A stretch of 27,452 nt of DNA from Promethearchaeota archaeon (GTDB lineage Archaea; Asgardarchaeota; Lokiarchaeia; Sigyniarchaeales; SOKP01). Positions 268 through 10,012 of this stretch are shown here, piece by piece. The position numbers and the translations under genes are program-made. The notes beneath the pieces were generated by a model. The model did not search any database and was not told the origin of the DNA. It saw only the letters and a program-made list of their open reading frames with translations. How positions within the stretch are numbered: position 1 is the first letter of the stretch; every line of letters starts with the position of its first letter. Location: contig JBHLON010000041.1 of the NCBI GenBank assembly GCA_048940445.1, positions 1-27,452 on the forward strand, given 5' to 3'.

Positions 268-1725
268 TTGAATATCGCATTAATTAACCCTGGACCGGGT
301 ACGATTTTGGATAGGGGTAGGCTTCAAGCAAATGCTGATCATCTTTATCCTCCTTTAGGAATGTGTTATGTAAGTGCTGTTTTAAAGAAAGAGAATTATA
401 GTGTTAACATAATTGACCAGGCTGCAATGGGACTTAATTTAGGTCAAATAGTTGAATGGATTAAAAAAGTCGATCCTGATATTTTAGGATTCTCGACATT
501 AACAACTTCAGGTTCAGGGATTAGTGCTGCCATAACAGCAAAAAAGATTAAAAAGTGGAACCCGAACATTAAGATTGTATTTGGAAATCGTCATGCCACT
601 GTTAATGATTGTAGGATTTTAAATAAGTATCCAGAAGTAGATATGTGCGTTAGAGACGAGGGAGAATATACATTTTTAGAACTAATTAAAGCTTTTGAAA
701 AAAATCTTCCTTTAAAAAGTATTAAGGGGATAACCTATAGAAGCAATGGAAATATAATTCAAAATGAAAAACGAAAATTAATTGAAGATTTAGATGCATT
801 GCCCTTTCCTGATAGAGATTCTTTAAATTTCAGATATAGCGTGAGTTATGGTAAAATAGAATTGTTCCCAGAAAAAAGTGCTTCATTTGTTTCTTCTCGT
901 GGATGTCCATATCAGTGTACCTTTTGTTATGGAAAAAGAAATGTGGGATATAGAAGTCGCTCAGTCGAGAACATTCTAGAGGAAATTTTATATTTAGAGA
1001 GCGAGGGATACAAATCAATAATTTTTGTAGATGATAATTTTACTGTATCTAAGAAAAAAGTGATAAAACTTTGTAAATTACTGCGAAGTAATAAGGTTGA
1101 TATGAATTGGTTTTGTGAGGGACGGGTAAATCAAGTGTCAGATGAAATGTTGAAAGAAATGCAACGTGCTAACTGTAGAACTCTTTATTATGGTATAGAA
1201 AGTGCAAATCAGAGAATTCTTGACTATTACAGAAAAGAGATTACTCCCACACAATCAATTTTAGCCGTAAAAAAAGCCAGAAAAGCAAAAATTCCCTTTG
1301 TTATTGGTTCTTTTGTTGTTGGAGCACCAGGAGAATCTTACGAGGAAATCTACAACACTTTAAAATTCCCTCAGAAATTGGATATAGATTTTCCACTCTA
1401 TAATATTCTAGGAACCGCACCAGGATCTGATATTTGGGATGAGTTAGTAGAGAGTAATCTCATAGATGAAGAGAAATTTTGGGAAGAAGGTCTTCGCGTT
1501 TCAGATGTGGACCCAAACGGAGTACCAACAAAAGTAATATCAAATTTAGTAAATAAAATGCTAAGAGAATTTTTTACAAATCCTAAATACTTGTCAAAAG
1601 CAATGATTAGGTTTACAAGGAGCAAATATAGAGCACTGAAATATATTAGTATTTTTTTTCATAATCTTAAAAATTTTAAAGATTTCCAAGGGGTTAAATC
1701 CTTTTGGAATCCTGACAATGTTTGA
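268..1725 (+). CDS. Cobalamin-binding radical SAM enzyme (class B methyltransferase-like), paralogue 1
   Basis: N-terminal B12-binding domain (YPPLG, DILGFS, VFGNRHAT, GEYT), SSRGCPYQCTFC CxxxCxxC motif, FVDDNF, GIESANQRIL; TTG start. Confidence 0.9.
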   Translation: MNIALINPGPGTILDRGRLQANADHLYPPLGMCYVSAVLKKENYSVNIIDQAAMGLNLGQIVEWIKKVDPDILGFSTLTTSGSGISAAITAKKIKKWNPNIKIVFGNRHATVNDCRILNKYPEVDMCVRDEGEYTFLELIKAFEKNLPLKSIKGITYRSNGNIIQNEKRKLIEDLDALPFPDRDSLNFRYSVSYGKIELFPEKSASFVSSRGCPYQCTFCYGKRNVGYRSRSVENILEEILYLESEGYKSIIFVDDNFTVSKKKVIKLCKLLRSNKVDMNWFCEGRVNQVSDEMLKEMQRANCRTLYYGIESANQRILDYYRKEITPTQSILAVKKARKAKIPFVIGSFVVGAPGESYEEIYNTLKFPQKLDIDFPLYNILGTAPGSDIWDELVESNLIDEEKFWEEGLRVSDVDPNGVPTKVISNLVNKMLREFFTNPKYLSKAMIRFTRSKYRALKYISIFFHNLKNFKDFQGVKSFWNPDNV

Positions 1726-8703: not shown

Positions 8704-9279
8704 ATGACAAAAAAATTCAAAGGTACATTATTTTTAGTAGTCGGTAATTCTGGTTCGGGCAAGGATTCAATAATTCAAGGAGCTCTTGAAAGATATCCAA
8801 GCCAACGAAATAAATTATATGCCCCAAAAAGATATATCACACGCCCTCCTTCAGAAACAGAAGATAACATTTCTGTTTCTCCTGAGGAGTTTAAAACTTT
8901 ATCCCAACAGGGAAAATTTGCTTTAGAATGGCATATTTATGGACTAGATTATGGCGTTCCTATTGAAATTGATGAATTATTAAAAAAGGGTCATTCCGTA
9001 GCCATAAATGTAAGCAGAGAGATAGTACCAAGCGCAAGAGAGATTTATAAAAATATTAAAGTTATATTTATAGAAGTGCCACTTGAAATTACTTTAGAGC
9101 GGTTAAAAGGACGTGCTAGAGAGACAGGGAAACGATTGAATGAAAGGATAGAAAGAGCAAGGAATAATCAACATTATCACGAAGCAGATAGTATCATAAA
9201 TAATACTGGTAAGCTTAATGATGCTATTGATAAATTTCTAAATTATATAATTAAAGTCTCAGAAAGCAAAAATAAATAA
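8704..9279 (+). CDS. phnN: Ribose 1,5-bisphosphate phosphokinase PhnN-like kinase (guanylate kinase fold)
   Basis: VVGNSGSGKDS P-loop, RYITRP, FALEWHIYGLDYG, NVSR, RL..RARE....I.R. Confidence 0.8.
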   Translation: MTKKFKGTLFLVVGNSGSGKDSIIQGALERYPSQRNKLYAPKRYITRPPSETEDNISVSPEEFKTLSQQGKFALEWHIYGLDYGVPIEIDELLKKGHSVAINVSREIVPSAREIYKNIKVIFIEVPLEITLERLKGRARETGKRLNERIERARNNQHYHEADSIINNTGKLNDAIDKFLNYIIKVSESKNK

Positions 9280-9285
9280 AATTTT

Positions 9286-9293
9286 TTTATATA
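9286..9293 (+). promoter_or_regulatory. TATA box of the tRNA-His gene
   Basis: TTTATATA ends 25 nt before G-1 (9319), the canonical archaeal spacing. Confidence 0.65.
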
Positions 9294-9341
9294 GTCATAT
9301 TATTAGTAAATAAAATATGGCCCGGTTCGTATAGTGGTTAG

Positions 9342-9372
9342 GATGCTAAGGTTCCAGAACCTATGTAACCAA
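9342..9372 (+). other. tRNA intron 1 (31 nt, position 22/23)
   Basis: BHB with central helix GGTT/AACC and bulges AG^G and AA^T; internal hairpin AGGTT-CCAG-AACCT. Confidence 0.82.
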
Positions 9373-9407
9373 TATTGGGGACTGTGAATCCCTAGAGACG
9401 GGTTCAA

Positions 9408-9436
9408 ACAAGAAAAGTTATGTTTTTTTGGAACAA
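9408..9436 (+). other. tRNA intron 2 (29 nt, position 58/59)
   Basis: BHB with central helix GTTC/GAAC and bulges AA^A and AA^T; inner helix CAAGAAAA/TTTTTTTG closed by loop GTTATG. Confidence 0.85.
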
Positions 9437-9547
9437 TTCCCGTACCGGGCCCTTCTTTCCTTTTTCTAGTCCATTATTGGTTTTTATTCTAAAAATGGAA
9501 ATTTAATATCCTTTTGATGATTTTCATATTCAATTTAAGATGATATT

Positions 9548-10012
9548 ATGAATATTATGACTAAGTTAGATTCCGAGAAAGTTAGAGACATTCCAGGTTG
9601 GGGAAAAGATGCACCGATTCATATTTGTATGGGTGCCGACTATCGAGGATTAACTTTTTGTTGCAAACCAGGATATTCATTAACATTTGGATTCAAGTGT
9701 AAAAGAGACAAGATTCTTCGAGAGATTGGGATGTCACCGCAAGAATTTATTCGGATAAAAGAAGAATTTTCAATTGAAAATGGATGGAATTCTAATTTAG
9801 TTTGTTTTGGGTCCCTCTCTTATTGTTGCATGCGAAGAGGTGGTTGTGAAAGGAGGGATCCAGCTTTAGAACTAAGATATCCTGATAAAACTAAGGAAGA
9901 GAGAATGCAAATTTATTTTAAGAAGAAGAAAGAATTGGCTAGAAGACTTTTGAAAGCTGTATTAGATCCAAAAGGCAAGAAAAAAGTTAAACCTTATTTA
10001 TCTTATTGTTAA
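9548..10012 (+). CDS. Methanogenesis marker 9 domain-like Cys-rich protein
   Basis: W.DAP.HIC.G.D.RGL.FCC.P ... QEFIRIKEEF ... CFGSL.YCC....C..RD pattern, recognised from memory. Confidence 0.75.
   Translation: MNIMTKLDSEKVRDIPGWGKDAPIHICMGADYRGLTFCCKPGYSLTFGFKCKRDKILREIGMSPQEFIRIKEEFSIENGWNSNLVCFGSLSYCCMRRGGCERRDPALELRYPDKTKEERMQIYFKKKKELARRLLKAVLDPKGKKKVKPYLSYC

Follow-up and report, generated by a model that had tools for sequence, protein, structure and literature searches.

A tRNA-His Gene with Predicted BHB Introns in the D-Stem and the T-Loop at a Syntenic Locus of Loki-Type Asgard Archaea

Results

A tRNA-His Gene in Three Exons

The stretch of DNA analysed here, referred to as the window, is 27,452 nt long and belongs to a Promethearchaeota archaeon whose genome assembly (G000) comprises 3.64 Mb in 139 contigs, with 30% G+C and an estimated completeness of 93%. 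Between the genes of a PhnN-type ribose 1,5-bisphosphokinase and a methanogenesis-marker-9-domain protein the window contains an element of 133 nt (Table 1). An initial annotation, made from the letters only, had described it as a tRNA-His(GUG) gene split at 22/23 and 58/59, with no intron at 37/38. Its reading of the sequence and its intron coordinates match the letters at this locus, and the proposed structure agrees with an identical intronless orthologue and with an ARAGORN call, both described below. The names given to the flanking genes, phnN and marker-9, were also appropriate, the former scoring above the TIGR02322 cut-off and the latter being a TIGR03277 domain match that falls below its cut-off.

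Joining the three exons after excision of both introns yields a 73-nt tRNA-His(GUG), and ARAGORN calls this joined sequence as tRNA-His(gtg) with a full cloverleaf. The residue G-1 is encoded in the genome and pairs with the discriminator C73, giving an acceptor helix of 8 bp. The D-stem is formed by G10-U13 and G22-U25, the D-loop contains GG, the variable loop has 4 nt, and the T-loop reads UUCAAUU. CCA is not encoded at the 3' end of exon 3, and there is no intron at 37/38. A covariance score had been suggested as a check on the spliced model; the intronless orthologue, which has the same sequence as the spliced product, obtains 57.4 bits with RF00005 (cut-off 29, E 3.5e-11), which is not a poor score.

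The gene is preceded by a candidate TATA box and followed by a candidate oligo-T terminator (Table 1). A/T-rich runs similar to the former are found upstream of tRNA-His in relatives too, at a distance that varies. Further downstream, the motif AAAAUGGAA(A/G)AUUAA occupies positions 9492-9508 of the window, about 40-55 nt upstream of the marker-9-domain gene. The same motif is present in the otherwise unalignable intergenic DNA of three related loci (L066, L014, and L002) and could be a promoter or leader element of the marker-9-domain gene.

Table 1. Features of the tRNA-His locus and related features of the host genome. Coordinates without a prefix are positions in the window.
Feature	Coordinates	Strand	Description
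PhnN-type ribose 1,5-bisphosphokinase, upstream	8704..9279	+	TIGR02322, 167 bits (cut-off 156); PF00625
Candidate TATA box	9286..9293	+	TTTATATA; ~29 nt upstream of G-1; tentative in a genome of 30% G+C
Exon 1	9319..9341	+	23 nt: G-1 (9319), acceptor 5' strand, U8, C9, D-stem 5' strand, D-loop, G22
BHB motif 1	9332..9377	+	central helix GGUU 9336-9339 / AACC 9367-9370, 4/4 Watson-Crick
Intron 1	9342..9372	+	31 nt, at 22/23, within D-stem 3' strand
Exon 2	9373..9407	+	35 nt: U23 to A58; remaining D-stem, uninterrupted anticodon arm, 4-nt variable loop, T-stem 5' strand, T-loop UUCAA
Anticodon GUG	9384..9386	+	in exon 2
BHB motif 2	9400..9439	+	central helix GUUC 9402-9405 / GAAC 9431-9434, 4/4 Watson-Crick
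Intron 2	9408..9436	+	29 nt, at 58/59, T-loop
Exon 3	9437..9451	+	15 nt: U59, U60, T-stem 3' strand, acceptor 3' strand, discriminator C73 (9451)
Candidate oligo-T terminator	9452..9466	+	tentative; pyrimidine-rich trailer, T5 run 9461-9465
Methanogenesis-marker-9-domain protein, downstream	9548..10012	+	TIGR03277, 74.7 bits, below cut-off 96.2
EndA alpha	L023:1171-1773	+	200 aa; matches A. pernix catalytic subunit 3P1Z_B, E 2.9e-38
EndA beta	L024:1423-2040	-	205 aa; Ala at catalytic His position of M. jannaschii EndA
HisRS	G000:C92:3698-4648		encoded in host genome
Interrupted tRNA-like spans (examples)	C61:59342-59519; C108:12991-13138; C72:26564-26699	+	

An Intronless Orthologue Fixes the Intron Boundaries

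A second genome of the same genus (G007) contains an uninterrupted tRNA-His (L005:801-873, minus strand) whose sequence agrees with the predicted spliced product at every one of its 73 positions and which lies between the same flanking genes as the element in the window; its initial 23 nt are exon 1. Because this identical intronless orthologue exists, the boundaries of both introns are fixed. Those of intron 1 are unique. Those of intron 2 may be shifted within a CAA repeat by as much as 3 nt with no effect on the product, and a 4-bp central helix is obtained for this intron only with the 58/59 placement. When the 133 nt were compared by BLAST with 40 related genomes, the exons were recovered in 18, separated by gaps of variable length. 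Intron 1 is missing from L005, L010, and others, while homologous introns occur in L003/L065 and L004/L040. Intron 2 is missing from L005, and homologous introns of 30 nt are present in 16 other distinct genes.

Standard Finders Miss This Gene and Much of the tRNA Set

The initial annotation expected that standard annotation would miss the gene, and both finders that we applied did so: the unspliced locus is detected neither by ARAGORN nor by Rfam/Infernal at the gathering score. With permissive filters and E<=10 on a 331-nt stretch, Rfam still does not report it. An intact tRNA-His elsewhere in the genome had been named, together with an absence of junction reads, as the observation that would speak for a pseudogene; none was found in the 93%-complete assembly by ARAGORN, RF00005, exon BLAST, or a scan for GUG anticodon arms.

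The tRNA-His gene is one of many that these programs do not see, since ARAGORN and RF00005 together detect only about 20 tRNAs in the host genome. A scan for an intact T-arm with a matching acceptor stem returned 28 spans, compared with 10 in the reversed genome. About 22 of the 28 are G+C-rich and tRNA-like, and some 15 of these, being 90-178 nt long, are interrupted. One tRNA-like span reaches 178 nt and another is a tRNA-Leu(UAA) with two introns in the D region; many isoacceptors are still without an assigned gene. A SPLITS-like scan for BHB motifs gave 22,370 raw candidates in the genome and 22,273 in its reverse, and these similar counts imply that the motif alone does not discriminate. 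When BHB excision is followed by ARAGORN, this tRNA-His is recovered together with Val-GAC, Gly-GCC, Gly-UCC, Gln-CUG, Arg-UCG, and the two-intron Leu-UAA; the reversed-genome control covers the raw motif scan, and the ARAGORN step was run on the real genome. The hidden tRNAs are thus recoverable by a BHB scan only when it is joined with ARAGORN after excision.

A strict pattern for other T-loop 58/59 introns in the genome (T-stem, UUCRA, BHB core, and h' of at least 3 bp) matched this gene only. Searches with blastn-short for paralogous copies of either intron in the genome returned only short, low-complexity matches, so that nothing points to transposition of introns inside this genome. The best of these matches (C82:15358-15376, E 0.08) lies in coding sequence and not in a tRNA. 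In the protein genes of the window no convincing BHB mini-introns were found; excisions that join reading frames there were either spans across gene boundaries or AT-rich chance pairings.

Both Introns Carry BHB Motifs

In archaeal BHB motifs, intron bases -6 to -3 form the central helix with the four exon bases that precede the 5' bulge, and cutting takes place after the second base of either 3-nt bulge. This layout agrees with PMC4090602 and with the methods of bioRxiv 10.64898/2026.10.13.758758. At intron 1 the 5' bulge is formed by 9340-9342 (AG/G, the slash marking the splice site) and the 3' bulge by 9371-9373 (AA/U), the final six bases of the intron being AACC followed by AA. The outer helix h has 4 bp (9332-9335 with 9374-9377; U-G, A-U, G-U, and U-A), two of them G-U, and the inner helix h' has 3 bp (9343-9345 with 9364-9366; A-U, U-G, and G-U), again with two G-U. 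A 5-bp hairpin within the intron pairs 9349-9353 with 9358-9362. At intron 2 the bulges are 9406-9408 (AA/A) and 9435-9437 (AA/U), and the intron ends in GAAC followed by AA. Here h has only 2 bp (9400-9401 with 9438-9439; G-C and G-U), while h' has 8 bp (9409-9416 with 9423-9430) around a 6-nt loop. At both introns h and h' therefore each have the 2 bp or more that define an hBHBh' motif. All elements of the geometry first proposed (GGUU/AACC, GUUC/GAAC, 3-nt bulges, and AA/U in both 3' bulges) are present, and the occurrence of such cores and bulges at both introns is far beyond chance.

The initial annotation had further pointed to weak outer helices and to refolding of the D- and T-arms. 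Both points are correct: h is rich in G-U at intron 1 and has 2 bp at intron 2, and BHB motif 1 can form only if the D-stem is unfolded. With ViennaRNA the precursor has a minimum free energy of -44.7 kcal/mol when unconstrained, -41.5 kcal/mol when the D-arm core is forced, -43.3 kcal/mol when the T-loop core is forced, and -39.0 kcal/mol when both are, a cost of 5.7 kcal/mol; the full hand-drawn motif has -26.8 kcal/mol. Judged by nearest-neighbour energies, the BHB folds can be reached but do not dominate. The ensemble probability is about 0.16 for the D-arm central helix and about 0.07 for the T-loop central helix, and a decoy AACC at 9358-9361 inside intron 1 pairs with the exon GGUU with a probability of 0.72. 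Intron 1 has two AACC tetramers, at 9358-9361 and 9367-9370, and pairing of the inner one would misplace the bulges.

The motifs are conserved among relatives. In an alignment of 17 distinct sequences with the 58/59 intron, the BHB is paired in 96.5% of cells. Its central helix is paired in 100% of cells, the only changes being from G-C to G-U or from U-A to U-G, and changes on both sides (compensatory changes) occur in 7 of the 9 h' pairs. None of 500 shuffles matches any of these measures. In a slide control pairing peaks sharply at register 0 and drops to 64-69% when the pairing partners are shifted by one column. In an alignment of 14 distinct sequences with the 22/23 intron, which fall into several sequence families, the BHB is paired in 97.9% of cells (60% or less in slid registers) and the central helix in 94.6% of cells in the relatives; both scored h' pairs covary. 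This conservation places the two introns of the window in two widespread and structurally constrained position classes.

The T-loop intron may also be viewed as a relaxed motif, in which the native T-stem pairs 49-52/62-65 serve as the outer helix and the 3' cut falls within a 5-nt bulge, AAUUC, so that cleavage would depend on a broad-specificity endonuclease of the CSL type. ViennaRNA selects this arrangement when central helices and bulges are forced. The outer helix of the strict motif consists of G-C and G-U only and, being invariant among the 17 genes, does not receive support from covariation; moreover, the EndA alpha subunit of the host (see below) has the CSL lysine that has been tied to cleavage of relaxed motifs (PMC5829648). 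On the other hand, a strict 3-nt bulge with a 2-bp outer helix can be drawn in 17 of the 17 genes, and nearest-neighbour energies are a poor guide for RNA bound to a protein. We consider the relaxed arrangement possible, if somewhat unlikely; the product is the same with either motif.

Interruption Is the Normal State of This tRNA-His

The survey of tRNA-His in related genomes that had been suggested was carried out on two sets. A set of 50 loci came from an exact-pattern search of species-representative genomes with exon 1, and spliced alignment to the mature sequence gave 67 tRNA-His genes from related genomes, 54 of them distinct. Records in the 50-locus set are mostly labelled Promethearchaeota/Promethearchaeia, with a few other Asgard labels and one label that is plainly wrong, being bacterial. 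The initial annotation had left the Asgard identity of the host conditional; the relatives that share the locus are Promethearchaeota/Promethearchaeia, in agreement with that identity. The order of genes for a DtxR-like repressor, the PhnN-type kinase, tRNA-His, the marker-9-domain protein, and a DHH protein is kept in 67 of 68 related loci. By this synteny the tRNA-His genes are positional orthologues, and differences among their introns are therefore real presence or absence.

Three of the 54 distinct genes have no intron, 12 have one, 25 have two, 13 have three, and one has four. With 51 of 54 interrupted, interruption is the normal state of the syntenic gene. Introns are most frequent at 45/46 (29 distinct genes), ~32/33 (27), 58/59 (22), and 22/23 (15), and less so at ~48/49 (5), 59/60 (3), and 37/38 (1). 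Introns at 15/16 (2 genes) and ~11 (1) are minimum figures in that positions upstream of 22 are under-sampled, because the 50-locus set was chosen by an intact exon 1.

Seven of the loci (L014, L016, L030, L039, L044, L050, and L066) have inserts of 31 nt at ~48/49, between the variable loop and the T-stem. With the alignment boundaries used, those of the L014/L066 group form poor BHB motifs, in which only 1-2 of the 4 central pairs are present. Either these boundaries are wrong by more than 4 nt, or the inserts use a different or relaxed motif. In a separate case, a same-genus tRNA with a GUC (Asp) anticodon arm (L022, G015:C124, ~1090-1200, plus strand) has an intron of about 30 nt after UUCAA. 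Like intron 2 of tRNA-His it is rich in A-runs and T-runs, and BLAST aligns the two with 73% identity over 69 nt (E 0.003), exon included. The two introns may belong to one family, or the BHB motif may have imposed the resemblance by convergence.

The locus with the bacterial label, L055 (DATKTW010000051.1), is titled 'Candidatus Nanopelagicaceae bacterium' and has an archaeal arrangement of phnN, a three-intron tRNA-His, and marker-9. Its tRNA-His gene is identical to that of L011, and the contig is probably mis-binned or mislabelled. Other loci in the same clades bear differing Asgard phylum labels (Hod-, Hermod-, Thor-, and Odinarchaeota).

These comparisons bear on the idea that the element is a decaying pseudogene, disabled by two insertions that are not removed, while a working tRNA-His resides in unassembled sequence. 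The assembly leaves some room for it, being in 139 contigs and 93% complete and having about 20 tRNAs visible to standard finders. It is nonetheless very unlikely, because the exons are identical at all 73 positions to those of the intact orthologue while the flanking proteins of the two loci are only 59-65% identical. The BHB cores of both inserts are without a mismatch, introns with compensatory changes occupy these two sites in the 15 and 22 distinct genes counted above, nearly all syntenic copies are interrupted, and the searches described earlier found no second copy in the assembly.

The Host Encodes a Two-Subunit EndA

The initial annotation suggested that an endonuclease of relaxed specificity may be needed and that its subunits should be typed. 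The host genome has two EndA paralogues as separate genes, both of which match PF01974 and PF02778 (the N- and C-terminal EndA domains). In the alpha paralogue the catalytic Tyr, His, and Lys all align with those of A. pernix 3P1Z_B, and its residues 50-60 match the Crenarchaea-specific loop (CSL, L1) of A. pernix in a gap-free alignment, with K58 opposite K44. This CSL lysine (A. pernix K44) confers cleavage of relaxed motifs (PMC5829648). In the two-domain profile NF006795, beta matches the N-terminal (structural) half and alpha the C-terminal (catalytic) half. As typed from their sequences, the subunits are a catalytic alpha with a CSL lysine and a beta lacking the catalytic His, presumably assembled as an (alpha-beta)2 heterotetramer, and an EndA of the broad-specificity type thus appears to be encoded, as the initial annotation had anticipated. 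The host genome also encodes RtcB and HisRS, and the tRNA-His is predicted to be charged by HisRS and used in translation.

Removal of the inserts by a route other than EndA (self-splicing or another nuclease), or their retention as expansions of the mature tRNA, is extremely improbable: EndA cleavage is here deduced from sequence, yet group I/II ribozymes are far larger than these inserts of 29-31 nt and Rfam finds nothing, the D-stem and the T-loop would be lost if the inserts were retained, and geometry and covariation are exactly those that EndA recognises.

Our reading, to which we assign a probability of roughly 0.9, is that 9319-9451 on the plus strand is the one tRNA-His(GUG) gene that can be detected in this Loki-type Asgard archaeon, and that its two introns are removed by EndA and its exons joined by RtcB. 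We infer transcription, actual cleavage, the order of splicing, and assembly of the heterotetramer. The 133-nt body would be transcribed with its introns in the D-stem and the T-loop, and in the precursor the final four exon bases 5' of each 5' splice-site bulge would pair with intron bases -6 to -3. The two-subunit EndA, with its CSL-lysine alpha and its His-less structural beta, would cut each bulge after the second base; RtcB would then ligate the three exons, the D- and T-arms would refold, and CCA would be added later.

The tRNA-His Allele of the Window Conflicts with Its Flanks

The history of the introns can be followed on a tree built from both flanking proteins, with 55 loci and 341 columns. 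On this tree the minimum number of presence/absence changes is at least 8 for the 22/23 intron, at least 9 for the 58/59 intron, and 11 each for those at 32/33 and 45/46. The exon allele types take 12 changes, where 7 is the lowest possible number and shuffling gives 33 on average, so for the most part the alleles agree with the flank tree. The window departs from this pattern: it groups with L066 as its sister (SH-aLRT 97) within a clade whose seven other members, L066, L014, L030, L039, L044, L050, and L016, carry another allele, one that differs in an acceptor pair, has a G5/C5 T-stem, and is interrupted at 32/33 and ~48/49. The allele of the window, in turn, is identical in its exons to genes in other, distant clades. 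An AU test rejects grouping of the seven without the window (p 0.007), with the group having been named post hoc from the tree.

The conflict between allele and flanks could be due to whole-cassette exchange or to homoplasy. No recombination breakpoints around the tRNA could be located, the intergenic DNA being too diverged to align, with identities of 0.2-0.8 in all comparisons. That intron-bearing tRNA-His genes move between Loki-type lineages as whole cassettes, by recombination at the phnN / marker-9 locus, is a speculation that we regard as unlikely. If it is true, exchange of alleles would be among the ways in which a lineage acquires tRNA introns; how such introns arrive is a question left open in bioRxiv 10.64898/2026.10.13.758758.

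Discussion

Genes of this type have been described in Asgard archaea. In three Asgard genomes, 92-95% of tRNAs were found to be interrupted, frequently by several introns (Valentin-Alvarado et al., PMC11291895). Asgard tRNA inserts lie at BHB boundaries and have been gained repeatedly, and tRNAscan-SE misses about 30% of them, mostly in the D-arm (bioRxiv 10.64898/2026.10.13.758758). Asgard (alpha-beta)2 EndA with an L1 loop, together with incomplete tRNA predictions for Asgard genomes, was reported in 2018 (PMC5829648). Because multi-intron non-canonical tRNAs and this form of EndA are already published for Asgard archaea, the gene presented here is a well-supported example and not a new kind of thing. 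The bearing on the origin of eukaryotic tRNA splicing that the initial annotation had foreseen does not materialise: the known picture is unchanged.

The published Asgard tRNAs, from Atabeyarchaeia and Freyarchaeia (PMC11291895) and from a motif-free census (bioRxiv 10.64898/2026.10.13.758758), resemble those described here in many respects. They come from the same phylum, and each gene tends to have several introns of ~20-30 nt, located in the D-arm and the T-arm. These introns also share BHB boundaries, are partly hidden from standard annotation, and show repeated gains among relatives. The two studies centre on Atabeyarchaeaceae, Freyrarchaeaceae, and Jordiarchaeaceae, and Lokiarchaeia are not named in the text of the preprint, whereas the host here is of Loki type. 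Unlike those studies, ours follows one syntenic tRNA-His locus across some 54 distinct genes, among them a copy that has no intron and matches the spliced product exactly.

For Thermoproteales it is textbook knowledge that BHB introns can be multiple and can lie at non-canonical positions, 22/23 and T-loop sites among them (PMC4090602). In Thermoproteales/Crenarchaeota a gene may have as many as three BHB or relaxed-BHB introns, at positions such as 22/23, 45/46, 56/57, and 59/60, and these are cleaved by an EndA of (alpha-beta)2 form that has the Crenarchaea-specific loop, as is predicted here (Sugahara 2007/2008; Marck and Grosjean 2003; PMC4090602). The phylum differs, however, and the present genome is AT-rich and presumably mesophilic; position 58/59 is absent from those named in PMC4090602. 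Intron transposition has been described in Thermoproteales, whereas our searches gave no indication of near-identical introns common to different tRNAs of this genome. The A. pernix EndA (PDB 3P1Z, 3AJV) and its Asgard homologues (PMC5829648) consist, like the host enzyme, of two paralogous subunits of ~200 aa. As in A. pernix, alpha has the Tyr/His/Lys and the L1 lysine and beta is without the catalytic His, the host enzyme being known from its sequence alone. The T-arm introns of ARMAN-2 / DPANN (53/54, 59/60) likewise lie within an arm that must refold, but that superphylum is a different one and its EndA is of the epsilon2 form, with an L2 and not an L1 loop (PMC5829648).

What is new is that tRNA-His at one syntenic locus has from 0 to 4 introns, which are spread over about nine positions and have been gained or lost many times, and that the series is Loki-type, follows an orthologous locus, includes a clean intronless control, and reveals a disagreement between allele and flanks. 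The gene in the window supplies the missing tRNA-His of this genome. About half of the tRNA set expected for this genome is invisible to ARAGORN and Rfam, and the intronless orthologue provides the control by which annotation of Loki-type Asgard genomes with these tools is seen to miss essential tRNAs. The locus is a compact natural series in which the gain and loss of BHB introns, and the tolerance of EndA for weak outer helices, can be followed.
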